Positions 4,401-51,196 of a DNA stretch of 64,000 bases are shown in pieces (position 1 is the first letter of the stretch; each line of letters opens with the position of its first letter). The stretch lies in assembly GCA_035649535.1 (NCBI GenBank), contig DASRJI010000101.1, positions 1,994-65,993 on the forward strand, read 5' to 3'. The notes beneath the pieces were generated by a model, which worked only from the letters and a program-made list of their open reading frames with translations, was not told the origin of the DNA and searched no databases. This DNA is from Acidimicrobiales bacterium (GTDB lineage Bacteria; Actinomycetota; Acidimicrobiia; Acidimicrobiales; JACDEA01). A program made the translations under genes and the position numbers.

Positions 4401-5728
4401 CCCTCGCCGCCGAGCGGGGCGGCGCGGTCGACGCGGGACTACGGCGGATCGACGGCCGCCGCGTTGCCTGGTTCCGTCTGGCCGGCGGCAAACATCGCGG
4501 CGCCATCGGCACCGTCGAGGGCGACACGATGCGCCGGGTCATTGAGGCGGGCGTCGATGCCGGCGTCCCGATCATTGGCGTCATCGACTCGTCGGGCGCC
4601 GACGTCACCGAGGGTGTCGCCGCGCTCCACGCGTGGGGAACGGTGGCGCGGGCCCTGGCGACCGCATCGGGCCAGGTACCGGTGTTGCTCGCGGTCGTGG
4701 GCCCGTGTGTGTCGGGACCCGCGCTGCTGCTCGGCCTCGCGGATGCGGTCGTGATGACCACCGACGCCTTTGCCTACGTGAGCGGGCCCGACGCGGTTGC
4801 TGCGTTCTCGGGTATGGACGTGGACCATCATCGGCTCGGCGGTGCGGCGATCCACGCCACACGCAGCGGCGTGGCCAGCCTGGTGGTGGACGACGAGGAC
4901 GCCGCGCTCGACGCGCTGGCGGCCTTGCTGTCGTACGTCCCCGACAACTGCATGACGATGCCGGATAACAGCGAGGCCGCCGCACCGATTGCATCGGCAG
5001 CCGACGTTGTTCCGGCGACGCCCAATGCGTCCTACGACGTACGCGCCGTTGTCGACGGCATCGTCGACGCTGGATCGTTCCTCGAGCTGCGCGCCCGCTT
5101 CGCGCCCAACCTCGTCACCGGTCTGGCTCGCGTCGACGGCGTGCCGGTAGGGATCGTCGCCAACCAGCCCTGCCAGCTCGCTGGCACGCTCGACATCGCT
5201 GCGTCGCAGAAAGGCGCCGGTCTCGTGCAGTGGTGCGACGCGTTCAACATTCCGCTGGTGACCCTCGTCGACACCCCCGGGTTCCAGCCCGGTAAGGACA
5301 TCGAGTGGCGGGGGATGATTCGCCACGGGGCGCAGCTCGCTCACGCATACGCGGCGGCCACCGTGCCGCGGGTGTGCGTGATCCTCCGCAAGGCGTTCGG
5401 CGGCGCGTACATCGTCATGGACTCGCGCCCGATGGGCAGCGACCTGTGCCTCGCCTGGCCCACCGCGGAGATCGCGGTGATGGGCCCGGCCGGTGCAGTC
5501 AACATCCTCTTCCGCCGCGAGCTGGCGGCCGACCCGACCCGGCGCGTCGACCTCGAAGCCGACTACGAGCTGCGCTATTGCAACGCACGGATGGCGGCCG
5601 AGCGCGGCTACGTCGACGCGATCGTCGCGCCCGACGACACCCGTGCCCTGATCGCCGAGACGCTCGACGCGCTGGCCGCCAAGCGGGAGCACCTTCCTCG
5701 CCGCCGCCACGCGAACATTCCGCTATGA
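4394..5728 (+). CDS. accD: acyl-CoA carboxylase carboxyltransferase (beta) subunit, AccD6-like
   Basis: The GTG at 4394 overlaps the fabF stop by 7 nt (in GTGCTGA). It has carboxyltransferase motifs (VIDSSGADV, PGFQPG, RKAFGGAYIVM). Its position after the KAS gene matches the mycobacterial fabD-acpM-kasA-kasB-accD6 operon. Confidence 0.85.
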   Translation: MLTLAAERGGAVDAGLRRIDGRRVAWFRLAGGKHRGAIGTVEGDTMRRVIEAGVDAGVPIIGVIDSSGADVTEGVAALHAWGTVARALATASGQVPVLLAVVGPCVSGPALLLGLADAVVMTTDAFAYVSGPDAVAAFSGMDVDHHRLGGAAIHATRSGVASLVVDDEDAALDALAALLSYVPDNCMTMPDNSEAAAPIASAADVVPATPNASYDVRAVVDGIVDAGSFLELRARFAPNLVTGLARVDGVPVGIVANQPCQLAGTLDIAASQKGAGLVQWCDAFNIPLVTLVDTPGFQPGKDIEWRGMIRHGAQLAHAYAAATVPRVCVILRKAFGGAYIVMDSRPMGSDLCLAWPTAEIAVMGPAGAVNILFRRELAADPTRRVDLEADYELRYCNARMAAERGYVDAIVAPDDTRALIAETLDALAAKREHLPRRRHANIPL

Positions 5729-6501
5729 CCAACGGACTCGTCGACGGCAAGCGACTCCTGATCACCGGCGTCCTCAACCACTCGTCGATCGCGTTTCACA
5801 CCGCGCGCGTCGCCCAGGAACAGGGCGCCGAGATCGTCCTCACGTCGTTCGGCCGGGCCATGCGCGTCACCGAGAGGGCGGCCAAGCGTCTGCCGTCGCC
5901 GCCCGACATCCTCGAGCTCGACGTCACCGATCCGTCGCACCTCGAATCATTGACAGCCGAGCTCGATCGCAGGTGGGGCGGCCTCGATGGCGTCCTCCAT
6001 GCGGTCGCGTTCGCGCCCGAGACGTGTCTCGGCGGCAACTTCCTGGCGTCGCAGTGGGATGACGTGAGCATCGCCATGCACGTATCGGCGTTCTCGCTCA
6101 AGGCGCTGGCCGTGGCCGCCGCCCCACTCATGAAGGCCGAAGGCGGATCGATCGTCGGGCTCGACTTCGACGCCGCCCAAGCGTGGCCCCAGTACGACTG
6201 GATGGGCGTCGCCAAAGCCGCGCTGGAGGCGACCGCCCGGTACCTCGCCCGCGATCTCGGCTCGTCGCAGATCCGGGTCAACTTGGTCGCGGCCGGGCCG
6301 GTGCGCACCGTTGCCGCCCGCGGCATCGCCGGGTTCTCGAAGTTCGAGGACGTGTGGACGGCCCGCGCTCCGCTCGGATGGGATGTGACTGAACCCGAGC
6401 CGGTGGCCCGTGCGTGTATCGCCCTCCTCTCCGACTGGTTCCCGGCGACGACGGGCGAGATCATCCACGTCGACGGCGGCTTTCACGCTGTTGGCGCCTA
6501 G
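5725..6501 (+). CDS. fabI: enoyl-ACP reductase (NADH), InhA/FabI type
   Basis: ATGA overlap with the accD stop. Starts GKRLLITGV and has the DWMGVAKAALE Tyr/Lys region and an IHVDGGFH C-terminus. Confidence 0.9.
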   Translation: MTNGLVDGKRLLITGVLNHSSIAFHTARVAQEQGAEIVLTSFGRAMRVTERAAKRLPSPPDILELDVTDPSHLESLTAELDRRWGGLDGVLHAVAFAPETCLGGNFLASQWDDVSIAMHVSAFSLKALAVAAAPLMKAEGGSIVGLDFDAAQAWPQYDWMGVAKAALEATARYLARDLGSSQIRVNLVAAGPVRTVAARGIAGFSKFEDVWTARAPLGWDVTEPEPVARACIALLSDWFPATTGEIIHVDGGFHAVGA

Positions 6502-37447: not shown

Positions 37448-38562
37448 TGCGGCGCGTTTCCGCGCCGCGCCCGGGCCCGCCGCGTCACCGGCATCCGTCG
37501 ATACGGCGGCTTGCGGTGATCACTCGACCACGGCGCCGGTGGCGCCAGGGTGACCGTCGCCAGTCCCAGCAGCACGGCGTCGTAGTTCACCCGCCACCCG
37601 TTGAAATCGCGCCACGCTTGATCGCGATCGCGCTTGAGCGGGACGCCGGCGTCGGCCATGGTCGCCAGCGCTTCGTCGAACTCCTCGCGCGTAATCGATG
37701 TCTCGTCGTCCGGCGCGGGATCGGCGTCGTACGGGATGTTGAAGAAGTCGGCGATGCGCCGGAGGGCGAGAAACCCGGCCCGGATGCAGAGCTGGGCGCG
37801 CGGCGAGTTGGGGGTGTCGACCGACGACTCCATCAGGGCCACGCCGTCGAGCACCGTTCCCGCCGCGGTGACCCACGAGCGCCCTGGCAGCGGCGACCGG
37901 TAGAAGGGGAGGGCGGCCAGGCTCAGGTGGCTCTCCTCGACGTCGACGAACCACGCCTCCCAGTCGCTCCACAGGTCGTCGAGCTGGTCGAAGGCGCCGA
38001 TGGCGTGGAAGCGGATGATCATCGTCGGCGCCCACGGCGCTCGTCCCTCGCGACCAGCGCGACTTGCGAGCAGCGCAACCTGCGCTTCGCGGCGAGCGAA
38101 GGCGGCGTACATGCTCGGTAGGTAGGTGATCAGCAGGGCGAGCGACGCGATCCCGAGGGCGGCTTCGGAGAACGCGAGGAAGGTCGCCGGGAGGCCGCTG
38201 GGGTGGGCAAAGCCGAGCGTGAACATCGACGAGCCACTGGCGTTGATCGCGGCGCGCCATCCCTGGTCGTTCACGGACCAGAACATGACCGTGTAGGAGG
38301 CGCCGATGACGGTCAGCCACACGACCGGGAGGAACAGCAGGCTCAGCGGCGCGAACAGGGCCAGCGTGTCGTCGGTGGCCCGCTCGGTGCGACGAAGACG
38401 GGCCACCCGCACGATGAAGAACCGGACGACGAGGAACGCCGCCCGCGAGAGCCGGACCTGGGCGGCCCGGGGGAGCACGAAGGTGTGGACGGCCGACAGT
38501 GTCGTGCTCGCCGCGGTGAGGGCGGCGATGGCGAAGGCCGCTATGCGGAGAACGAGCACCAC
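37444..38562 (-). CDS. membrane protein with K-channel-like pore module (degenerate filter) and cytoplasmic domain
   Basis: It has an outer helix, then a pore-helix/filter-like segment INASGSSMFTLGFAHPSGLP, an inner helix and a soluble tail of about 200 aa. Confidence 0.5.
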   Translation of the reverse strand: MVLVLRIAAFAIAALTAASTTLSAVHTFVLPRAAQVRLSRAAFLVVRFFIVRVARLRRTERATDDTLALFAPLSLLFLPVVWLTVIGASYTVMFWSVNDQGWRAAINASGSSMFTLGFAHPSGLPATFLAFSEAALGIASLALLITYLPSMYAAFARREAQVALLASRAGREGRAPWAPTMIIRFHAIGAFDQLDDLWSDWEAWFVDVEESHLSLAALPFYRSPLPGRSWVTAAGTVLDGVALMESSVDTPNSPRAQLCIRAGFLALRRIADFFNIPYDADPAPDDETSITREEFDEALATMADAGVPLKRDRDQAWRDFNGWRVNYDAVLLGLATVTLAPPAPWSSDHRKPPYRRMPVTRRARARRGNAPQ

Positions 38563-38592
38563 TCCTCGTTAGCAGACGCGTACGATCGCGTC

Positions 38593-39915
38593 GTGCGGTC
38601 GACCGAACCGCTCCGACCTACGGCGGCCACCACGTTGACCCCGCTCGTCGCGGCGTTCTTCGGCGACAAGCCGCTACCCGTGAAGTTGCGGTGTTGGGAC
38701 GGCAGCGTCATCGGCGATCCGGCGGCGCCGGCCACGCTCGTGATCGCCTCGCCCGATGCGGTCCGCCGGCTCTTGTGGGCGCCCAACGAGTTGGGCCTCG
38801 GCCGGGCCTACGTCGCCGGCGACCTCGACGTCGACGGCAACGTCTTCGACGTGCTCTCGCTGCGTGACGTTCTCGCCGATCGCGGCGACGGCCTCAGGAT
38901 CGCCCTGGACTGGCGCGGCCGGCTGAGGGCACTGCGCGCGGCGCGGGCGGTTGGCGCGCTGGGCCGCCCGTTGCCGCCGCCGCCCCAGGAGGCCCAGCTG
39001 CGCGGTGGGCGTCACTCGAGGGCGCGGGACGCCGCCGCCGTCTCGCATCACTACGACCTCTCCAACGACTTCTATCGCATGGTGCTCGGGCCCACGATGA
39101 CGTACTCGTGCGCGTACTTCCCGGATGAAGACGCCACGCTCGATGAGGCGCAGCGCTACAAGTACGACGTCATCGCTCGCAAGCTCGAGCTTACGGCCGG
39201 GATGCGACTGCTCGACGTCGGTTGCGGCTGGGGCGGCATGGTGCTGCACGCGGCGGAGGAGTACGGCGCGCGCGCGGTGGGTGTCACGCTGTCGCAGCGG
39301 CAGGCCGAGCTGGCGACCGAGCGCGTCCGGGTCGCGGGGCTGAGCGATCGCATCGAGATCCGGGTGCAGGACTACCGCGACATCAACGACGGCCCGTTCG
39401 ACGCCATCAGCAGCATCGGGATGTTCGAACACGTCGGCCGGGATCAGCTGGCCGAATACTTCGGCTGCCTGCACCGTCTGCTCGCCCCGGGCGGCCGCTT
39501 GCTCAACCACGGCATCTCGCGCCCGGGCGACGGCGAGGTCGGCTCGCGCGCTGCGTTCGACCGCAACGGGTTCATCGAGCGCTACGTGTTCCCCGACGGC
39601 GAACTGCACGAGGTCGGCACTGTCGTGAGCCTCATGCAGGAGCGCTTCGAAGTTCGCGACGTCGAGTCGCTGCGCGAGCACTACGCCCGCACGCTGCGTC
39701 ACTGGGTCGCCAACCTCGAGGCCAACTGGGACCGCGCCGTCGATCTCGTCGGCCCGTCGGCTCGCATCTGGCGGCTCTATATGGCCGGGTCGGCCCTCAA
39801 CTTCGAAGCCGGCCGCACGTCGATCCACCAAGTTCTCGCCGTGAAACCCCACGCCGATGGCACCAGCGGTATGCCGCTGAACCGCGCCTCGTTGTTGCTA
39901 CAGCAGTCGCAGTGA
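38593..39915 (+). CDS. cfa: cyclopropane-fatty-acyl-phospholipid synthase family SAM methyltransferase
   Basis: HYDLSNDFYRMVLGPTMTYSCAYF, LLDVGCGWGG and the HVG...Y region. I moved the start to the GTG at 38593. Confidence 0.85.
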   Translation: MRSTEPLRPTAATTLTPLVAAFFGDKPLPVKLRCWDGSVIGDPAAPATLVIASPDAVRRLLWAPNELGLGRAYVAGDLDVDGNVFDVLSLRDVLADRGDGLRIALDWRGRLRALRAARAVGALGRPLPPPPQEAQLRGGRHSRARDAAAVSHHYDLSNDFYRMVLGPTMTYSCAYFPDEDATLDEAQRYKYDVIARKLELTAGMRLLDVGCGWGGMVLHAAEEYGARAVGVTLSQRQAELATERVRVAGLSDRIEIRVQDYRDINDGPFDAISSIGMFEHVGRDQLAEYFGCLHRLLAPGGRLLNHGISRPGDGEVGSRAAFDRNGFIERYVFPDGELHEVGTVVSLMQERFEVRDVESLREHYARTLRHWVANLEANWDRAVDLVGPSARIWRLYMAGSALNFEAGRTSIHQVLAVKPHADGTSGMPLNRASLLLQQSQ

Positions 39916-43907: not shown

Positions 43908-43958
43908 AGCGCGATTGCGTCTAGCGGTGGCGCGCGCCGGATGGTTCCCTGGCGAGCG

Positions 43959-44857
43959 ATGTTCCTCGACGCGATCGCTCGGTTGACGAGCGCACAGCAC
44001 GGGCTCGTCACGACGCAGCAGATCCTCGCGACCGGCGCGACCCGCGCATGGATCAGGTGGGCGGTCGAGGACGGGCGGCTGACCCCGGTTCGTCGCGGCG
44101 TCTACGCGGCGGTCGGCGCGCCTGCGTCACCGTACGCAAGCCTCGCCGCCGCAGGGTTGGCAGCCGGCCCCGGCGTTGCCGCATCGCACCTCCCTGCGGG
44201 CTGGCTTTGGGGCGCCGCCGACGTGGCCCGGGCCCTACCGGAGCTGACGGCGTTTGACGGTCGCCAAGTCCGCCTCCGCGGCGTCCGAGTCCACCGATCG
44301 GCCCTTGAGTCGGAGCGATGGGTAACGGATCGGCACAACATTCCCACCGTCGTTGCACCGCTGATGATCGTGCAGTTGGCGGAGGCCGCGAGTTGTGAGC
44401 TGGCGATAGCGGTCGCCCGCGACCTCCGGAAGCGGAACCTCGTCGGGTATCGGCTCGTACTCGAGTGCCTCGATGCGACGCGGATCAAGGTCAAGCCTGC
44501 GCTAGCCCGCTATTGCGACCGGGCCCTGCGGGTCGACGGCCACGACGACAGTCCGCGGCGAACGCGCTGGGCGTCGCGCTGCTCGATGCCGGCGTGCCAC
44601 AGTTTGAGACGCAGTACGAGGTCGTCGTCGATGGCCGGGTCCTTCACCTCGATTTCGCTTGGCCCGACCACATGGTCGGCCTCGAGTACATGGGCAAGGC
44701 AGACCACGGAATGGACCAAGTCGACAGCGACGCCCGTCGCCGCGGCCAACTCACCGCTGCCGGTTGGCGCGTCCTAGACGCCACCGCCGGGATCGCGCTC
44801 CGCGACATCGTGCGATGGGTGGATCAAGCCTTAGCCATCGCCCGCCGCGTGCAGTAG
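43959..44857 (+). pseudogene. frameshifted AbiEi-like N-terminal domain / DUF559 (Vsr-like endonuclease fold) gene
   Basis: Two overlapping ORFs (43941..44777 and 44465..44857) together make one typical DUF559 protein. The frame switch lies near 44550-44560. Confidence 0.7.
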
Positions 44858-44887
44858 TGGACGTGTACACAGCCACTTCTGCACGCG
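44842..44887. repeat. right copy of the 46-bp direct repeat
   Basis: It contains the last five codons and the stop of the DUF559 gene (ARRVQ*) plus 28 nt downstream. Confidence 0.9.
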
Positions 44888-44904
44888 CTGGCCGGGGATG
44901 GCGG

Positions 44905-45591
44905 TTACGCGGCGGCGAGGCGGGCCTGACGGATTCGGTTGTGGAGGACGACGGTGTACGAGATGTCGAGCACGGTCACGATGACCGCCAGGCAGCGCAC
45001 GAACGGGTTGCCGTAGAACACCATGAAGATGAAGACCGTCACCATGCCGGTGCCGATGAACTTCGACCAGGCCACTGTCATCGAGAGATCACGCGGGTTG
45101 GCCAGCGTGAGGCCGAACCACAAGTAGGCGGCGGACTCCACGACGTTGACGGCGTAGGCCGACACGCTGCCGAGCGGCAGGTCGTAGCCCGAGTTCTTCA
45201 TCGTGACGTGGAACGCGACCCAGCCGGCGACGATCCCGGTGTTGATGAGCACGAACCAACGGCGGACCAGCGGCACGTTGGTCTGTTTGGCGCCGTAGAC
45301 GTAGACGAAGATCAGGATCGGCAGGTCCATGATGAACGCGCCGCGATAGATCCACTGCAGGCCCCATCCCATGTCGACGTGGAACAGGAAGCCCCACACG
45401 AACTCCCACGTGACATTGCCGGTCGCCGCCAGCACCGGTATCTCGAGGCGCTTCTGTTTCACCGCGATCACGAGGATCGCGGTGTAGGCCGGGACCCACG
45501 CGAGGAACCCGCCCACGTACCAGAAGACCTCGGCGCGGCTGTAGTGCCGGGTGTCGAGGAACGGCTCGGCGGCGAGGATCGCGTACCTCAC
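44905..45591 (-). CDS. polytopic membrane protein of unknown function (about 7 TM)
   Basis: GTGA overlap with the upstream MpaB-like gene. The product is very hydrophobic and Trp/Phe-rich (NVTWEFVWGFLFHVDMGWGLQWIY). Confidence 0.55.
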   Translation of the reverse strand: MRYAILAAEPFLDTRHYSRAEVFWYVGGFLAWVPAYTAILVIAVKQKRLEIPVLAATGNVTWEFVWGFLFHVDMGWGLQWIYRGAFIMDLPILIFVYVYGAKQTNVPLVRRWFVLINTGIVAGWVAFHVTMKNSGYDLPLGSVSAYAVNVVESAAYLWFGLTLANPRDLSMTVAWSKFIGTGMVTVFIFMVFYGNPFVRCLAVIVTVLDISYTVVLHNRIRQARLAAA

Positions 45592-46760
45592 GGCTGGACC
45601 CCGGTCGGCACCGCCTTCGGCATGGCCCACGGCGTCGCCAGCGCAGCCGGAATGTCGAATGCCGGTCGGGTCCCACCGCGCACCATACGGAACGCGTTGT
45701 CGAGCAGTTCGCGCCCGATCGGTTCGACGAGCCGCTGGAGTCGCTCGCTCCGGTCGACCAGCCGTTCGCCGCGCCCGAACACGCGTCCCATCCAGCGGGG
45801 GACGAATCGCACCAGCGGAGGGGTCACCGTCGGGACATCGATCATGGCGGCCACGTCGTTGCCGATCAGATACCGCATCAGCGTCGGGACAAACGGGTCG
45901 TCGAGTGGGCCCGGTGTCAACGTCTGGACCAGCTCGATGAGCGCGGCAGTGAGCTCCTTGCCCTCCTCGGTCGCTTCGTACTGCCGCTCGCGGATCGCGT
46001 TCACCAATTGGGTCGCGTCGTCCATGTCGTGGATCCGCATCTCGGGGAGGACGCCGAGCATCTCGCCGACGACCTTCCAGAGATGGAGGTAGTCCTCCTG
46101 CGTCCGCCGGCTCACTTCGATGCCGAGCTTGCGCAGCGGTTCGGCCGGCACGTAGGCGAACGACAGCAGGGTGCCGGCCAAGTCCTCCTGGTTGATCGGC
46201 GTACCCCAGTGCGGGTCCCACGACGCCGGGTTCCGCAGCCTCTCCTTCTCGATGCTCTGCCGGATCGCCGCGTGCATGAGCCGGACGTGCTGGATCGTCC
46301 GCCGCCCGTTGCCCGTGTCCTCGAGACCGCCGGGCGTGAGGACGTCCATCAGGAACTGCCCGGTCTCGAGCACGCGGCGCTTGGCGTCCTTCTGGAGGCG
46401 GCCGGTATAGGCGAGCACGCGAACGCCCTTACCGGCCGCGTAGGCCGACGGGAGCGAGGCGCAAAACAAGCACGTCGTGATGTGCACGCCCCAGATCTGG
46501 AAGAAGCTCTGCGCCCGGGCAATCCGGTCGGGTTTGGCCCACCTGGGCAGCTCGATGGTGGTGTTGAGGAACTGCTCCATGTCGTCGGGCAGCTCACGAG
46601 GAACCGGCTGGTTAGTGCGAACCAGGGTCCGGAAGATGTCGTTGACGTGTTCGAGCTCGGACCCGGCGAGCACCGATGCCGCGATGTCATCGGCGGGTTT
46701 GTCGCCGACATCGCGCATCGGATCGAGCTTTGCGTCGGTCCAGCGTCCCCTGTCCGCCAT
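45588..46760 (-). CDS. MpaB/Lcp-like oxygenase family (DUF2236) protein
   Basis: An AGGGGG ribosome-binding site precedes the ATG at 46760. It has the TIQHVRLMHAAIR motif and the overall pattern of DUF2236. Confidence 0.7.
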   Translation of the reverse strand: MADRGRWTDAKLDPMRDVGDKPADDIAASVLAGSELEHVNDIFRTLVRTNQPVPRELPDDMEQFLNTTIELPRWAKPDRIARAQSFFQIWGVHITTCLFCASLPSAYAAGKGVRVLAYTGRLQKDAKRRVLETGQFLMDVLTPGGLEDTGNGRRTIQHVRLMHAAIRQSIEKERLRNPASWDPHWGTPINQEDLAGTLLSFAYVPAEPLRKLGIEVSRRTQEDYLHLWKVVGEMLGVLPEMRIHDMDDATQLVNAIRERQYEATEEGKELTAALIELVQTLTPGPLDDPFVPTLMRYLIGNDVAAMIDVPTVTPPLVRFVPRWMGRVFGRGERLVDRSERLQRLVEPIGRELLDNAFRMVRGGTRPAFDIPAALATPWAMPKAVPTGVQP

Positions 46761-46814
46761 CGAAACTGACCCCCTGCTATCCGCGTATCCCCGAGGCAGC
46801 ATGGCAGACTGCGC

Positions 46815-49800
46815 GTGAGCATGGCTGAAGCGAGCCGCGCGCTTCGCATCACGCTTGTAGGACAACTGGGAATCGCTAAGGGGGCGGTTCGTCTCGAAGA
46901 GCGTCAACTGAGCGGTGCTCAAGCGCGCCTCGTGTTCGTGACGCTCGTTCTGGAACGCCGGCGGGTGCTGCCCCGTGACGAACTGGCCGACGCGCTGTGG
47001 GGCGAGTCGCTCCCGTCGTCGTGGGACTCGGCACTCCGCAACCTCGTCAGCCGGGTACGGGCCTTCGTCGGCGAGGCCGGCCTCGATCCCGACGAGGCCA
47101 TGGTCGGGACGCGCGACGGCTACCAGCTACGGCTCCCGGAGGACGCGGTTGTCGACGTCGAAGAAGCAGCCGACCTCGTCCAAGGTGCCGACGCCGCCGC
47201 CGCCGACGGGCAGCACAGGGAGGCCGCCGAGGCCGCCGCCGCGGCGCGGGCCGCGCTGACACCGCCGCTGCTCGCCGGCGTCGACAACGTGTGGCTCGAT
47301 GCCCAGCGCGAGCGGTTGAGCGCGCTGCGCGTGCGGGCGGCCGAACTCGAGGCCGGCGCCCGCCTGGCGCTGGGTGACGCGGGCGCCGCGGTCGTCGCCG
47401 CCGCTGATGCGGTCGCCGCCGCCCCGTACCGCGAGTCGGCGTTCCGGCTGCTGATGGGCGCCCACGCGGCGGCCGGCAATCGGGCCGAGGCATTGCGCGT
47501 GTACGAACGATGCCGGCGCATGCTCGCCGAGGAGATGGGGGTCAGCCCGTCGCCAGAGACCGAGGCCGACTACGTCGCGCTGCTCGGCACCGAACCCGAC
47601 CCATCGATTGCCGCTCCGCTGGCGACGACCTCGGGGACGGTGACGTTCCTCTTCACCGATATCGAGGGCAGCTCGACCCGATGGGAGCAGGACGCCGAGG
47701 CCATGGCCGCCGCGCTGGTGCGGCACGACGAGCTGATCACCGTCGCCGTCACGGGCAACTCCGGGCGCGTCTTCAAGCACACCGGCGACGGCGTGTGCGC
47801 AGTGTTTGCGTCCGCCAGTGACGCGGTCGTGGCCGCGGTCGCCGCCCAACGGGCGCTGGCGGCCGCGGATTGGGGGCGGCCCGGTCCGCTCCGCGTTCGC
47901 ATCGGCGTTCACACCGGCGAGGCGGAAGTGCGCGGCGACGACTACGCCGGCGTCGCCCTGAATCGCATCGGCCGGTTGTGCGCGCTGGCCAGCGGCGGGC
48001 AGATCCTGGCGTCGGCGTCCACCCGGCTGATCGTCGACGGCCGACTTCCTCCGCCCGTCGCGTTGCAGTACCTGGCTGAGGTCGAACTGCGCGGCATGGC
48101 CGGGACCGAGGCCGTGTACCAGGTGACGCACCCCGACTTGCGGGCTGACTTCCCTGCCGTCCACACCGGTCACCGGCAGGGATCGAGCCTGGCGATCGAG
48201 GACGCGGCATTGATCGGTCGCGACGCCGACCTGGCCAGCGTCCTTGCCGCGACCGACGCGTCGCGACTCGTGACGATCACCGGCGTCGGTGGCGTCGGTA
48301 AGACGCGGCTGGCACTGGCCGCCGCGCACCGCGTGAGCCAGACATATGGCGACCGGACGTGGTGGGTCGAACTGGCGTCGGTTGATCCCGACGCCGTCGC
48401 CTACGCGGTGGCTAACGTCGTCGGTGGCGCTCGGCAGGGCATGGACGCGCTGGCGGCGACGATCGCCCGGCTCGACGCGGCGCCCGCGTTTCTCGTGCTC
48501 GACAACTGTGAGCACGCCGTCGAGGCCGTGAAGCTGGTCGTCGAGGCGCTGTTGGCTGCGTGCGCGGACCTCAACGTGCTGACGACCTCGCGAGCGACAC
48601 TCGGGGTGGCGACGGAGCACGCGGTGAACCTGGCGCCGCTCGCCGCACCGGCCGAGGATGCCGGGTTCGACGCAATCGTCGCCAGCCCCGCGGTCGAGGT
48701 GTTCGTGCGTCGCGCCCAAGCCGCGAGCCACGGCTTCACGCTGACGGAGTCCAATGCCGCCGCCGTCGCCGAGATCGCCCGGCGGCTGGATGGGCTACCG
48801 CTCGCCCTCGAACTGGCGGCGGCACGCGTGCGGTCGATACCGCCCGCCCAAATCGCCGCCCATCTCGACGAACGCTTCCGATTGCTCCGCGGCGCCCACC
48901 GCGACGCGTCCGGGCGCGAGCGGCGCCTAGAGGACGTGGTTCGCTGGTCATACGAGCTACTCGACGCGGCCGAGGCCGGGCTGTTCGATCAGCTGTCCGT
49001 ATTCGCCGGCGGCTTCAGCATCGAGGCGGCGGCCGCCGTCGCCGGCCTCGACATCCTCGACGTCTCTGACCTGATCGACGCATTGGTCTCCCGCTCGATG
49101 CTCGTCGTCGTCGACGACGCGACCTTCGCTCGCTACGCGCTCCTCGAGACCATGCGCGAGTTCGGCCGGGCCAACCTCGACGCAGGTGGCGAAGCGGCGA
49201 ACGTGATCGGGCGCCATCGCGACTACTACGTCGCGCTGGCGACGTCGGCGGCGGCGGGCCTCCAAAGTCGCGAGGAGGCGTGGTGGGTTCGTGCCGTGCA
49301 CGCCGACCTGGCCAACATCCGTGCCGCGTTCGTCCGCGCCGCGGCGGTGCGCGACGTGAACGCCTGCGCCGAGATCGTCGTGGGCCTGTTCGACTACGCC
49401 TTCTTCCGGATGCGCCGCGAGGTCGGCCTCTGGGCAGCCGAGACCGTCGCCCTCCCCGGCGCCGCCGATCACCCGCTGTACCCGCAGTTCGCCGGTGTAG
49501 CCGGGCACCTCGCGTGGGAGCGCGGCGACATCGACAACGCGACCACGTACGCCGAGTCGGCCGTCGCCGCCGGGAGCACCTGGCTCGGCCACGACGCCCT
49601 CGGCACGATCCGCTTGTTCCAAGGCCGGGTCGCCGATGCCGTCGAGGCCTTCACGGCGGCGAGCGAGTCGGCGCGATCCGCGGGTAACGACTACCGGCTC
49701 GCATTGGCGTTGGGCCAACTCGCGTTCTCGCATGTGCTCACGGCCGCGGACCAATCGGACGACGTCGCGGTCGAACTGGCAGTCGAGGCCGAGGCAGTAG

Positions 49801-50351
49801 CCGGTCGGACCGGCAATCCGACTGCGGTGGCCCACGCCGCGTGGTCGATGGGTCTGGCGCTGTTCGATCGTGACCCGGCCGGCGCGCTCGAGGCGCTGGC
49901 CCGGTGCATCGAAATCAGCCGTGAGGTCGACAACCGCATGGCGCTCGGTGCCGCGGCGACGCCGGCTGAGGAGCTGCGGACCAAGCTCAGCCGGCGGACG
50001 CTCGACGACGACCTGCGGGCCGCGGTCGAACACATCGACTACTGGGTCAAGGTCGACAACACCGCCAATCTCTGGGGCGTCGTACGACGGGTCGCGCGCG
50101 ACTTCGCCGCCCTCGGTGACGCCGAATCGGCCGCCGTCGCGCTGGGCGCCGACGCCGAGGCGTCACTCAAGCTGCCGCTACGGGAGCGGGAGCAAGCCCG
50201 GCATGAGGCGGTCGTGGCCGACGTGCGGGCCGCCCTCGGTCCCGACGTGTTTGCCGCCCAGATGGCGAGGGGTGCGGCGATGACGCCGAGCGAGCTGGTC
50301 GAACAGCTGCGTGCCGCGGTCGCCGAACTCGGCGACCACCGCGGTAACTAA
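46815..50351 (+). CDS. SARP (OmpR-type wHTH + BTAD) - class III adenylyl cyclase - NB-ARC/STAND ATPase - TPR multidomain regulator
   Basis: The wHTH has ELADALWGE...RNLVSRVR. The BTAD has YRESAFRLLMGAHAAAGNRAEALRVYERCRRML. The cyclase has FLFTDIEGST, FKHTGDG and GVALNRIGRL. The P-loop is GVGGVGKTRLA and a long helical-repeat tail follows. Confidence 0.8.
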   Translation: MSMAEASRALRITLVGQLGIAKGAVRLEERQLSGAQARLVFVTLVLERRRVLPRDELADALWGESLPSSWDSALRNLVSRVRAFVGEAGLDPDEAMVGTRDGYQLRLPEDAVVDVEEAADLVQGADAAAADGQHREAAEAAAAARAALTPPLLAGVDNVWLDAQRERLSALRVRAAELEAGARLALGDAGAAVVAAADAVAAAPYRESAFRLLMGAHAAAGNRAEALRVYERCRRMLAEEMGVSPSPETEADYVALLGTEPDPSIAAPLATTSGTVTFLFTDIEGSSTRWEQDAEAMAAALVRHDELITVAVTGNSGRVFKHTGDGVCAVFASASDAVVAAVAAQRALAAADWGRPGPLRVRIGVHTGEAEVRGDDYAGVALNRIGRLCALASGGQILASASTRLIVDGRLPPPVALQYLAEVELRGMAGTEAVYQVTHPDLRADFPAVHTGHRQGSSLAIEDAALIGRDADLASVLAATDASRLVTITGVGGVGKTRLALAAAHRVSQTYGDRTWWVELASVDPDAVAYAVANVVGGARQGMDALAATIARLDAAPAFLVLDNCEHAVEAVKLVVEALLAACADLNVLTTSRATLGVATEHAVNLAPLAAPAEDAGFDAIVASPAVEVFVRRAQAASHGFTLTESNAAAVAEIARRLDGLPLALELAAARVRSIPPAQIAAHLDERFRLLRGAHRDASGRERRLEDVVRWSYELLDAAEAGLFDQLSVFAGGFSIEAAAAVAGLDILDVSDLIDALVSRSMLVVVDDATFARYALLETMREFGRANLDAGGEAANVIGRHRDYYVALATSAAAGLQSREEAWWVRAVHADLANIRAAFVRAAAVRDVNACAEIVVGLFDYAFFRMRREVGLWAAETVALPGAADHPLYPQFAGVAGHLAWERGDIDNATTYAESAVAAGSTWLGHDALGTIRLFQGRVADAVEAFTAASESARSAGNDYRLALALGQLAFSHVLTAADQSDDVAVELAVEAEAVAGRTGNPTAVAHAAWSMGLALFDRDPAGALEALARCIEISREVDNRMALGAAATPAEELRTKLSRRTLDDDLRAAVEHIDYWVKVDNTANLWGVVRRVARDFAALGDAESAAVALGADAEASLKLPLREREQARHEAVVADVRAALGPDVFAAQMARGAAMTPSELVEQLRAAVAELGDHRGN

Positions 50352-50361
50352 CCGTTGGCCC

Positions 50362-50391
50362 GGTCGGTCCCGCCCCCCGCGGGATCCGACC
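50362..50391 (+). terminator. GC-rich stem-loop downstream of the SARP-cyclase gene
   Basis: GGTCGGTCCCGC, a CCCCC loop, then GCGGGATCCGACC (12 bp with one bulge). Confidence 0.4.
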
Positions 50392-50506
50392 GCCCCCGTT
50401 CTTGGCGACCAGCCCCCCCAAGACCTGGTCGACGTGGGTGACCGTACGGACCGGCCGCAATTCGCCCGCAAGGCCAGCGCAAGTGGCCGTCCTCTAGCCT
50501 GCGGCC

Positions 50507-51196
50507 GTGCCTGACGAGACGGCGGTGGTGGTCTTCCCGACGTGTCTCGTCGAGTTGGTGGCGCCGGCGGTCGGCCAGGCCGTGGTGCGGGCGCTCGAAG
50601 CGCGCGGGTACACCGTCACCGTCGGCCGGGGCGCGACGTGCTGCGGCCAGCCGGCGTGGAACGCCGGTTATGTAAAGGACGCCCGTCGCGTCGCCCGCCG
50701 CACCGCCAAGGCGCTGGACCGCACCACGGGGCCGGTCGTCGTCCCGTCGGGCTCGTGCGCGGCGATGATGCACGAGTACTGGCCCGAACTACTGGGCGAG
50801 TCCGGCGTCGGCGTGGCGTCGCGGGTGGTCGAGTTCTCGGCGTTCCTCGGTGCCGGCGCCGACGTGCAGGCCCGCCCCGCCGGCGACGGCGTTGCGTACC
50901 ACGACTCGTGCCACATGCTGCGCTCGCTGGGCATCAAGGAAGAGCCGCGGCGGCTCCTCGGTGGGACCGCCGAGTTGTCGGAGCGATGCTGCGGCTTCGG
51001 CGGCACGTTCTCGGTGAAGCTGCCCGAAGTGTCGACCGCCATGGCCGACGAGAAACTCGACGAGGTTGTTGCCGCCGGCTGCGACACCTTGGTCGGCTGC
51101 GACTTGTCCTGCCTGATGCACCTTGACGGCCGGGCGCGCCGGCGCGGGCTGGGCCTCACGGTGCGCCACCTGGCTGAAGTCCTCGCCGATGGCTGA
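50507..51196 (+). CDS. lutA: L-lactate utilization protein A ((Fe-S)-binding CCG-domain oxidoreductase)
   Basis: FPTCLVE and TCCGQPAWNAGY motifs plus a second CCG-type Cys cluster (CCGFGGTF). It is followed by lutB and lutC. Confidence 0.8.
   Translation: MPDETAVVVFPTCLVELVAPAVGQAVVRALEARGYTVTVGRGATCCGQPAWNAGYVKDARRVARRTAKALDRTTGPVVVPSGSCAAMMHEYWPELLGESGVGVASRVVEFSAFLGAGADVQARPAGDGVAYHDSCHMLRSLGIKEEPRRLLGGTAELSERCCGFGGTFSVKLPEVSTAMADEKLDEVVAAGCDTLVGCDLSCLMHLDGRARRRGLGLTVRHLAEVLADG

Follow-up and report, generated by a model that had tools for sequence, protein, structure and literature searches.

A stretch of 64,000 nucleotides (the window) from an Acidimicrobiales bacterium (GenBank assembly GCA_035649535.1, contig DASRJI010000101.1, positions 1,994 to 65,993) carries a gene for a 1178-aa regulator that is divergent from a pair of genes, one for a haem oxygenase homologue of the Lcp/MpaB family and the other for a predicted membrane-bound terpene cyclase of the Pyr4 type. 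Analysis of this locus showed that the core of the regulator, an adenylyl cyclase domain followed by a nucleotide-binding oligomerisation domain (NOD) and TPR-like repeats, has a conserved partnership with the gene pair, and that the pair recurs as a module in many bacterial phyla. The architecture of the regulator alone is of less interest than the conservation of the three-part system and the wide occurrence of the oxygenase-cyclase module. We lean slightly towards the explanation that the regulator is a switch of the STAND type, in which the TPR tail would sense a lipid or isoprenoid related to the pair and oligomerisation would lead to cyclic AMP (cAMP), while the forms carrying an N-terminal SARP module would also activate the divergent promoters. 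The locus consists of the following features.

46815..50351, plus strand: regulator gene, 1178 aa; GTG start at 46815, alternative ATG at 46821 (open reading frame (ORF) list; orthologues with 51-70% identity)
45588..46760, minus strand: gene of the Lcp/MpaB-family haem oxygenase homologue, 390 aa; ATG at 46760, stop at 45588 (Pfam and LcpK30 match)
44905..45591, minus strand: gene of the predicted Pyr4-type transmembrane terpene cyclase, 228 aa, 7 transmembrane (TM) helices; GTG at 45591 (Pfam Pyr4-TMTC)
46761..46814, no strand: divergent intergenic region, 54 bp, holding the conserved motif GCAGCATGGCAGACT at 46796-46810

The ORFs and their coordinates matched the initial annotation of this DNA. 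In the gene call of a public collection the regulator starts at V40. The upstream start is preferred here because a start at V40 would cut into the winged helix-turn-helix (wHTH).

The oxygenase and terpene cyclase pair

The initial annotation had left the Trp-rich membrane protein without a function. This can now be replaced by a family assignment, as the protein matched Pfam Pyr4-TMTC (PF25129) at 41.5 bits against a cut-off of 27. The protein has 10 Trp in its 228 aa, and its AlphaFold model shows seven long helices in a 7-TM bundle, with a predicted local distance difference test (pLDDT) value of 94.6. Residues E63 and D209 were invariant in 35 homologues and were equated with the active-site residues E63 and D218 of Pyr4 (PMC6486709), by profile positions and not by a direct alignment with Pyr4. 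The protein is accordingly named here a predicted Pyr4-type transmembrane terpene cyclase in which the active-site Glu and Asp of Pyr4 are kept. Foldseek comparison of its model with the PDB gave weak 7-TM matches only (the PQ-loop protein cystinosin, SWEET and the KDEL receptor; TM-score 0.5-0.65, E >0.007), and the PDB copy searched contained no solved Pyr4-type structure.

The oxygenase matched Pfam MPAB_Lcp_cat (PF09995) with 74.8 bits and LcpK30 (5o1m) with an E value of 2.4e-25 over ~310 residues, its RLMHAAIR falling on RMVHAAVR of Lcp. The His of this aligned helix presumably corresponds to the axial haem ligand of Lcp. No signal peptide was seen on inspection of the N-terminus, MADRGRWTDAKLDPMRDVGDKPADD, which has no hydrophobic segment, and the enzyme is therefore predicted to be cytoplasmic. 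The GTG of the terpene cyclase gene and the TGA of the oxygenase gene overlap as GTGA, in agreement with the translational coupling proposed earlier, and the same 4-bp overlap was found at three related loci (L152, L153 and L154).

Scans with the terpene cyclase profile gave 63 loci in genomes and 78 in metagenomes. Represented among them were Actinomycetota, Leptospira (including L. interrogans), Bacteroidota, Acidobacteriota, Gemmatimonadota, Ignavibacteriota, Verrucomicrobiota, Proteobacteria and Myxococcota. Linkage was scored only where the cyclase gene had 1.4 kb or more of flank on each side (n = 78). At 65 of these 78 loci, from about eight phyla, an MpaB homologue lay within ~2.5 kb of the cyclase, and all four relative orientations of the two genes were seen. 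In one case (L238, 209-2080, minus strand) the two are fused in a single ORF of 623 aa, with the cyclase at the N-terminus, a linker, and the oxygenase at the C-terminus, both Pfam domains being confirmed. The two genes of the window are arranged in the opposite order. Among 49 loci with no detected MpaB, nine (L067, L073, L095, L115, L125, L145, L147, L148 and L149) have a CrtI-like FAD oxidoreductase (CrtI/amine-oxidase type, PF01593) 10-50 bp upstream of the cyclase; five of the nine are on contigs too short to score. The presence of a CrtI-like enzyme in place of MpaB suggests that the oxidase partners are interchangeable. The pair was also present at the Leptospira loci L029-L034, L039, L055, L057 and L065 (including L. 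interrogans ATCC 43642), with a divergent gene for an outer-membrane transporter of the FadL/TodX type, for hydrophobic compounds, ~1.1 kb upstream.

In a search for a conserved third gene around the pair, most of the recurrent ORF clusters had no Pfam match or were overlapping-frame artefacts, and no terpenoid-precursor genes were found around the pair loci. The partners identified were lineage-specific only, namely FadL/TodX in Leptospira, the CrtI-like enzyme where MpaB is absent, a histidine kinase at a few loci and UbiB at one. This last, single case is in a metagenome-assembled genome (MAG) of Microthrixaceae (L013, 6419-7981), where a gene for a UbiB/ABC1 atypical kinase (PF03109, 181 bits) is directly upstream of the cyclase and MpaB is downstream. 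UbiB/ABC1 kinases are associated with prenylquinone metabolism.

A Pyr4-type cyclase usually acts after an oxidase has primed the prenyl chain (PMC13307353). By analogy, the linkage, the fusion and the exchange of partners found here would fit this logic of an oxidase priming a Pyr4-type cyclase, the oxidase in this case being of the haem dioxygenase type. A 2026 survey of bacterial Pyr4-like cyclases, the only one published, kept 264 of 1107 homologues, those with terpenoid genes nearby; loci like that of the window were filtered out of it because they have no such genes nearby. The MpaB and Pyr4-type cyclase pair is an unstudied module of many phyla, including pathogenic Leptospira, and its substrate would define a new bacterial isoprenoid lipid chemistry.

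Link between the pair and the regulator

The link between regulator and pair was present in five of the seven closest SARP-bearing orthologues. At L010, L152, L153 and L154, the next-closest SARP-bearing loci (51-56% identity), the MpaB and terpene cyclase genes are divergent from the regulator gene as in the window, and all flanks differ. The gaps between the regulator and MpaB genes in the five loci are 43-81 bp as called, or 32-70 bp after the MpaB starts of L010 and L152 are moved upstream. The same divergent position is taken by genes for cyclase-NOD-TPR proteins of ~900 aa that have no SARP module at L011, L012, L014, L015, L018, L080 and L238, the last being the locus with the fused enzyme, which is 37 bp from the SARP-less gene. 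At L017 a SARP-less cyclase-NOD-TPR gene is convergent with the pair. A rough neighbour-joining tree, computed on the region common to both groups, recovered the SARP-bearing orthogroup as monophyletic and placed it inside or next to the SARP-less proteins. Because the SARP-less sisters share the divergent position, and in view of this placement in the tree, the link between cyclase-STAND proteins and the pair is older than the SARP fusion. Many partners of the pair have no SARP module, and therefore SARP-mediated promoter activation is not the whole link and not the original one. The conserved partnership is that of the cyclase-NOD-TPR core with the pair.

The genes of more distant SARP-cyclase proteins, at 35-38% identity, lie next to other neighbours. 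At one such locus (L157) the gene for a SARP-cyclase-NOD-TPR protein is divergent, at a distance of 3 bp, from a gene at 5566-5997 for a 143-aa protein that binds cyclic nucleoside monophosphates (cNMP), which fits a real cyclic-nucleotide output of the cyclase. The 31-kb contig of L157 also carries two more BTAD proteins and another cyclase, and is thus a paralogue-rich signalling neighbourhood.

Just upstream of the regulator start, the intergenic regions of the SARP-bearing loci have a motif in common, GCAGC(C/A)TGnCAGA(A/C)T, which is complete in the window, L010, L152 and L154 and partial in L153. Read on the two strands, it contains TGnCAGAAT and TGnCAGGCT, putatively two back-to-back -10-like elements of the TGn-extended kind. 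At 0 mismatches the 15-nt motif was unique in the window, and its match with 2 mismatches was at chance level. A scan of 44700-50600 for sigma-70 promoters and terminators gave nothing, as expected at 70% GC, the G+C content of the window being ~70%. Repeats confined to single loci were CCGGTGCG(T/C)AA, twice at 11 bp in L153, and TATCC(G/C)CG, twice at 8 bp in the window. The sequence AGCATGGC(A/T)GA occurs twice, 20 bp apart, at 46797-46829, with one copy in the conserved motif and the other over the ATG at 46821; this repeat was seen in the window only and may be due to chance. At the SARP-less loci the intergenic regions have TAnnnT hexamers ~7 nt from the start codon, a spacing that suggests leaderless transcripts, and inspection of these regions by eye gave no convincing CRP-type palindromes.

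Architecture and distribution of the regulator

Profile, PDB-sequence, AlphaFold and Foldseek evidence agree that all four modules of the 1178-aa regulator are real, which confirms the four-part composition (SARP, cyclase, NB-ARC and TPR-like) given in the initial annotation. The AlphaFold model, built on 35 relatives, had a mean pLDDT of 88 and set the domain limits at aa 1-258 (SARP), 271-449 (cyclase), 459-770 (NOD) and 775-1175 (helical repeats), with disordered linkers joining the modules.

46815..47588, plus strand: SARP module, with an OmpR-type wHTH at ~aa 8-105 and BTAD at aa 113-254 (Pfam, NCBIfam, PDB-sequence, Foldseek)
47625..48161, plus strand: class III adenylyl cyclase catalytic domain, aa 271-449 (Pfam, phmmer, residue conservation, Foldseek)
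48189..49124, plus strand: NB-ARC/STAND NOD, with P-loop, Walker B, TSR sensor 1, helical ARC and winged helix
49137..50339, plus strand: C-terminal TPR-like helical-repeat region, the predicted sensor, aa 775-1175 (AlphaFold and Foldseek)

The SARP module shows the N-terminal OmpR-type wHTH and the BTAD expected of large, AfsR-like SARPs. In Pfam, BTAD scored 95 bits and Trans_reg_C 22 bits, the latter under its cut-off, and the NCBIfam match to the AfsR N-terminus scored 128 bits. PDB-sequence matches were to EmbR (2fez, E 1e-21) and AfsR (8k60/8jke/8hvr, E 3e-20), and Foldseek matched EmbR as well as AfsR 8k60, the latter with a TM-score of 0.88.

The cyclase domain scored 22.9 bits with Pfam Guanylate_cyc, for which the cut-off is 21.9. 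Its best phmmer match was the active Mycobacterium avium cyclase Ma1120 (E 1.5e-21), Rv1900c/LipJ was matched too, and the fold has TM-scores of ~0.9 to both. Alignment with Ma1120 placed D282 in FTDIEG, K321 and D325 in KHTGDG, D376 in GDDYAG, and N383 and R387 in ALNRIGR. D282 and D325 were assigned to the metal, K321 and D376 to the substrate, and N383 and R387 to the transition state. All six canonical class III residues are kept, as had been claimed, and the Lys/Asp pair is of the ATP type. The domain is predicted to synthesise cAMP in a dimer-dependent manner. Among 35 SARP-cyclase proteins, the D282 position was Asp in 33 and Glu in two, K321 was kept in 34, the D325 position was Asp in 27 and Glu in eight, D376 and R387 were each present in all 35, and the N383 position was Asn in 28 and Ser in seven. 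The catalytic residues thus appear to be under clear constraint across these family members, Asn383 excepted.

The NOD has a Walker A sequence, GVGGVGKT, at aa 490-497 (48282-48305), a Walker B sequence, LVLDNCEH, and a TSR sensor motif. Walker A and B were invariant in the 35 sequences, as were K496, D563 and T591-S592-R593. Pfam matches of the NOD were weak (AAA_16, NB-ARC and AAA_22), its Foldseek matches were 6mfv, Apaf-1 and a plant resistosome, and orthologues of the regulator carry a precomputed PF25872 (HTH_77) match. From aa 775 to 1175 the model consists of ~20 paired helices with pLDDT around 90 or higher, and the best Foldseek match of the regulator was the STAND-TPR protein 6mfv, aligned over 735 columns. 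No TPR match was found in this tail with Pfam, though several relatives carry PF13424 (TPR_12). Pfam also gave no match to a C-terminal LuxR/GerE helix-turn-helix (HTH), and the model ends in helical repeats, in line with the absence of such a domain noted earlier.

A word-indexed search with the regulator gave 4657 relatives, and the best 120 examined contained ~40 clusters of 1150-1250 aa with both BTAD and Guanylate_cyc; the automatic JGI label on such clusters is "predicted ATPase/class 3 adenylate cyclase/DNA-binding SARP". When aa 1-450 were compared exhaustively by phmmer with 1.84 billion representatives of 50%-identity clusters, ~94 of the 150 best matches aligned, by our own count, in a single stretch from SARP into cyclase. 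Of the best 80 loci in GTDB species representatives, almost all were cyclase-NOD-TPR proteins with no SARP module, from Mycobacterium, Chloroflexota and Actinomycetota MAGs, and the SARP-cyclase fusion was found among them in one Acidimicrobiales MAG only (L207). A single-protein scan of GTDB genomes with the regulator likewise found distant relatives only; there is therefore no close cultured relative. The SARP-cyclase family is large and almost entirely from uncultured Actinomycetota.

The literature search, which took in Shenoy et al. 2004 (PMC2447327) by its abstract and references, found no experimental paper on the SARP-cyclase architecture; in those parts, Shenoy et al. mention BTAD alongside Rv0386-type cyclases. 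A 2026 AfsR survey recognises only two layouts of large SARPs, SARP-NB-ARC-TPR and SARP-LAL (bioRxiv 10.64898/2026.09.02.748808), and current reviews likewise give only these two. For PimR, SanG and PolR a "guanylate cyclase homology" has been reported, which concerns the ATPase/TPR half of these proteins. The SARP-cyclase-NOD-TPR protein, which the initial annotation had set apart from the cyclases known to it, is not rare but common in metagenomes and in sequence space, though no experimental characterisation of it was found. It joins the known large SARPs to the cyclase-STAND proteins, would make a third layout of large SARPs, and would tie NLR-type switching to cAMP signalling in one polypeptide.

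Among the other genes of the window, an AbiEi-like gene at 43941-44857 (Pfam AbiEi_4; PADLOC AbiEi, E 8e-21) appears to be frame-shifted. Its first frame (43941-44777) is rich in Ser, Thr and Arg after ~aa 220, and the product of its second (44465-44857) plausibly forms a C-terminal domain, to which Pfam gave no match. The C-terminal half of a 597-codon frame at 38122-39915 matched CMAS, a methyltransferase of the mycolic-acid cyclopropane-synthase type, with 315 bits. The LutB protein of the window has its closest matches, at 62-66% identity, in Acidimicrobiales MAGs, which points to an uncultured actinobacterium of the Acidimicrobiales type as the source. A tRNA scan of the window found none.

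Proposed mechanism, alternatives and known relatives

According to the STAND switch explanation, the joint substrate of the oxygenase and the terpene cyclase would be a polyprenyl or isoprenoid lipid of the membrane. The oxygenase would oxidise or cleave a C=C bond, and the Glu/Asp pair of the terpene cyclase would then protonate the oxidised or olefinic end, leading to ring closure; the reverse order could also apply. The TPR-like tail of the regulator would sense a ligand, probably the substrate or the product of the pair, and nucleotide exchange in the NOD would drive oligomerisation. The adenylyl cyclase domains would thereby come into the head-to-tail dimer needed for catalysis and produce cAMP, and in the same assembly two SARP modules would be set side by side, recruiting RNA polymerase to the short, overlapping divergent promoters. 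Candidate substrates are polyprenyl quinones, carotenoid-type polyenes and taken-up hydrophobic isoprenoids, for which the only hints come from the UbiB gene of L013, the CrtI-like partners and the FadL of Leptospira. In a more ambitious version, which we regard as tentative and rather doubtful, the core would be a dedicated sensor of a membrane isoprenoid metabolite from a widespread, previously unrecognised two-enzyme pathway, with a Lcp/MpaB-type haem dioxygenase, in place of a flavin or P450 epoxidase, priming a Pyr4-type cyclase, and in the SARP forms a single NLR-like activation would result in both cAMP and promoter activation. Ring-closed polyprenyl-quinone ends or apocarotenoid-like signals would be possible products of such a pathway. 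Few ligands and targets are known in the cyclase-STAND family, which includes the mycobacterial Rv0386 group; for the regulator described here, the cognate target genes seem to have been identified.

Several observations weigh against the proposed switch. The two closest relatives of the regulator, at L008 (69% identity) and L009 (59%), are kept with no pair adjoining. Their flanks are those of the window (aldo-keto reductase, MaoC and hotdog genes upstream, LutABC downstream), and a segment of ~2.9 kb of the window, with the pair and the AbiEi-like gene, is missing from L008. A search for SARP boxes in the five SARP-bearing loci (8-mers, at most 1 mismatch, 7-23 bp spacing) found no SARP-type direct repeat with ~11-bp spacing common to their intergenic regions. 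At the transition-state position Asn383, four close orthologues have Ser and several SARP-less partners have Thr, and the cyclase active site of P0008 is degenerate. P0008 (L239) is a SARP-less close relative (~50% identity) in which several of the catalytic residues are lost (FTEIEGGA, FHHTGLG, GRFEG), and no pair adjoins its gene on a short contig. Neither the window nor the Actinomycetota loci have genes for a prenyltransferase, a terpene synthase or carotenoid formation close to the pair, and no meroterpenoid cluster with a prenyltransferase and a flavin monooxygenase (FMO) or P450 epoxidase was found in the window neighbourhood or at related Actinomycetota loci. Finally, all functional statements on this locus rest on sequence, and the organism, a soil-type actinobacterium, is uncultured.

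The relatives at L008 and L009 and the missing SARP boxes would also be explained if the regulator does not control the pair but acts ectopically or globally like AfsR, the adjacency being due to shared inheritance or the pair merely supplying the ligand. The unrelated contexts of the distant family members point the same way, as does the finding that 58% of AfsR-like regulators are ectopic (bioRxiv 10.64898/2026.09.02.748808). We nevertheless consider this unlikely, since at least 12 distinct loci, which otherwise differ in their flanks, keep the divergent arrangement (gaps of 32-81 bp), and the 15-nt motif over both putative -10 elements is kept among the SARP-bearing loci. The initial annotation had named the divergent pair as the obvious candidate target. 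It still is, with the arrangement recurring in four further SARP-bearing orthologues, but the two loci lacking the pair, the SARP-less partners and the want of shared SARP repeats leave the earlier interpretation supported in part.

It could also be argued that the cyclase domain is a pseudo-enzyme and serves as a dimerisation hinge that pairs SARP modules on DNA, the regulator then being an AfsR-like activator with no cAMP output. Dimerisation is obligatory for class III cyclase domains, and SARPs function in tandem pairs, as in the AfsR structures 8k60 and 8hvr. The Pfam score of the domain, barely above the cut-off, the drift of Asn383 to Ser or Thr in many orthologues and the lost residues of P0008 would agree with such a role. 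On the other hand, the window protein keeps all six catalytic residues, and five of the six positions are 94-100% conserved (counting Glu as Asp at the metal sites) in 35 proteins that are otherwise 34-70% identical. The SARP-less partners have no DNA-binding domain, so that the cyclase must be their output, and one relative (L157) is paired with the cNMP-binding protein. A pseudo-enzyme is therefore improbable. That the regulator is an anti-phage STAND/NLR protein of the Avs kind, with a Pycsar-like cyclase effector and unrelated neighbours, is hardly credible: the STAND, TPR and N-terminal effector parts do follow the Avs layout, PADLOC gave weak matches to the Pycsar cyclase PycC (E 2e-6) and the AbiEi-like gene (43941-44777) is nearby, but there was no match to a PADLOC STAND or Avs model or to a defence system, the K321/D376 pair specifies ATP and not pyrimidines, a SARP DNA-binding module does not fit known defence NLRs, what is conserved as the partner is a pair of metabolic enzymes, and none of the other module loci has the AbiEi-like gene.

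Of the known proteins with which the regulator can be compared, AfsR of Streptomyces coelicolor (SARP-NB-ARC-TPR) shares the N-terminal wHTH and BTAD, with 32-34% identity and TM-scores of 0.84-0.88, as well as a P-loop NOD and a C-terminal helical-repeat sensor, and the regulator is probably, like AfsR, a nucleotide-switch activator. It differs from the AfsR type in having a class III cyclase of 180 aa between SARP and NOD, so that the NOD does not directly follow the SARP module. Its NOD-TPR part is closer to cyclase-linked STAND proteins, and phmmer alignment to AfsR covers the SARP part only. At the position of the latch, as judged by eye, the regulator has R-Y-A-L-L-E-T and its family the consensus Y-x-L-L-E-T, unlike the F/Y-HD motif reported for 3,853 AfsR-like proteins (bioRxiv 10.64898/2026.09.02.748808).

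The mycobacterial proteins of the Rv0386, Rv1358 and Rv2488c type have the cyclase-NOD-TPR core in the same order, and many Mycobacterium loci match residues ~266-1162 of the regulator at 35-38% identity. In contrast to the Rv0386 type, the cyclase of the regulator is internal, after 260 aa of SARP, and the C-terminal LuxR/GerE HTH is absent. The substrate-specifying residues are Gln/Asn in Rv0386, whereas the regulator has the canonical Lys/Asp. Ma1120 and Rv1900c (LipJ), to which aa 271-449 are closest in sequence and in structure, agree with this domain in fold and in the metal, substrate and transition-state residues. These two are stand-alone or fused to a lipase-like domain, whereas the cyclase described here is embedded in a STAND transcription factor.

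The predicted terpene cyclase has in common with the Pyr4 family (fungal Pyr4, AndB and AscF; bacterial XiaH, TylF, GroF and ZigF) the Pfam family, the size of ~230 aa, the 7-TM topology and the Glu/Asp pair. Unlike these, it lies outside a meroterpenoid cluster with no prenyltransferase nearby, has as its partner a haem oxygenase of the Lcp/MpaB type instead of an FMO or P450 epoxidase, and belongs to a subfamily spanning many phyla, including Leptospira. The oxygenase is homologous over ~310 residues to LcpK30 and fungal MpaB/MpaB', with the His of the haem helix aligned, and the chemistry of this family is oxidative cleavage of isoprenoid C=C bonds. In contrast to LcpK30 it has no secretion (Tat) signal and is translationally coupled to a membrane cyclase, or in L238 fused with one, and extracellular rubber is an unlikely substrate for it.

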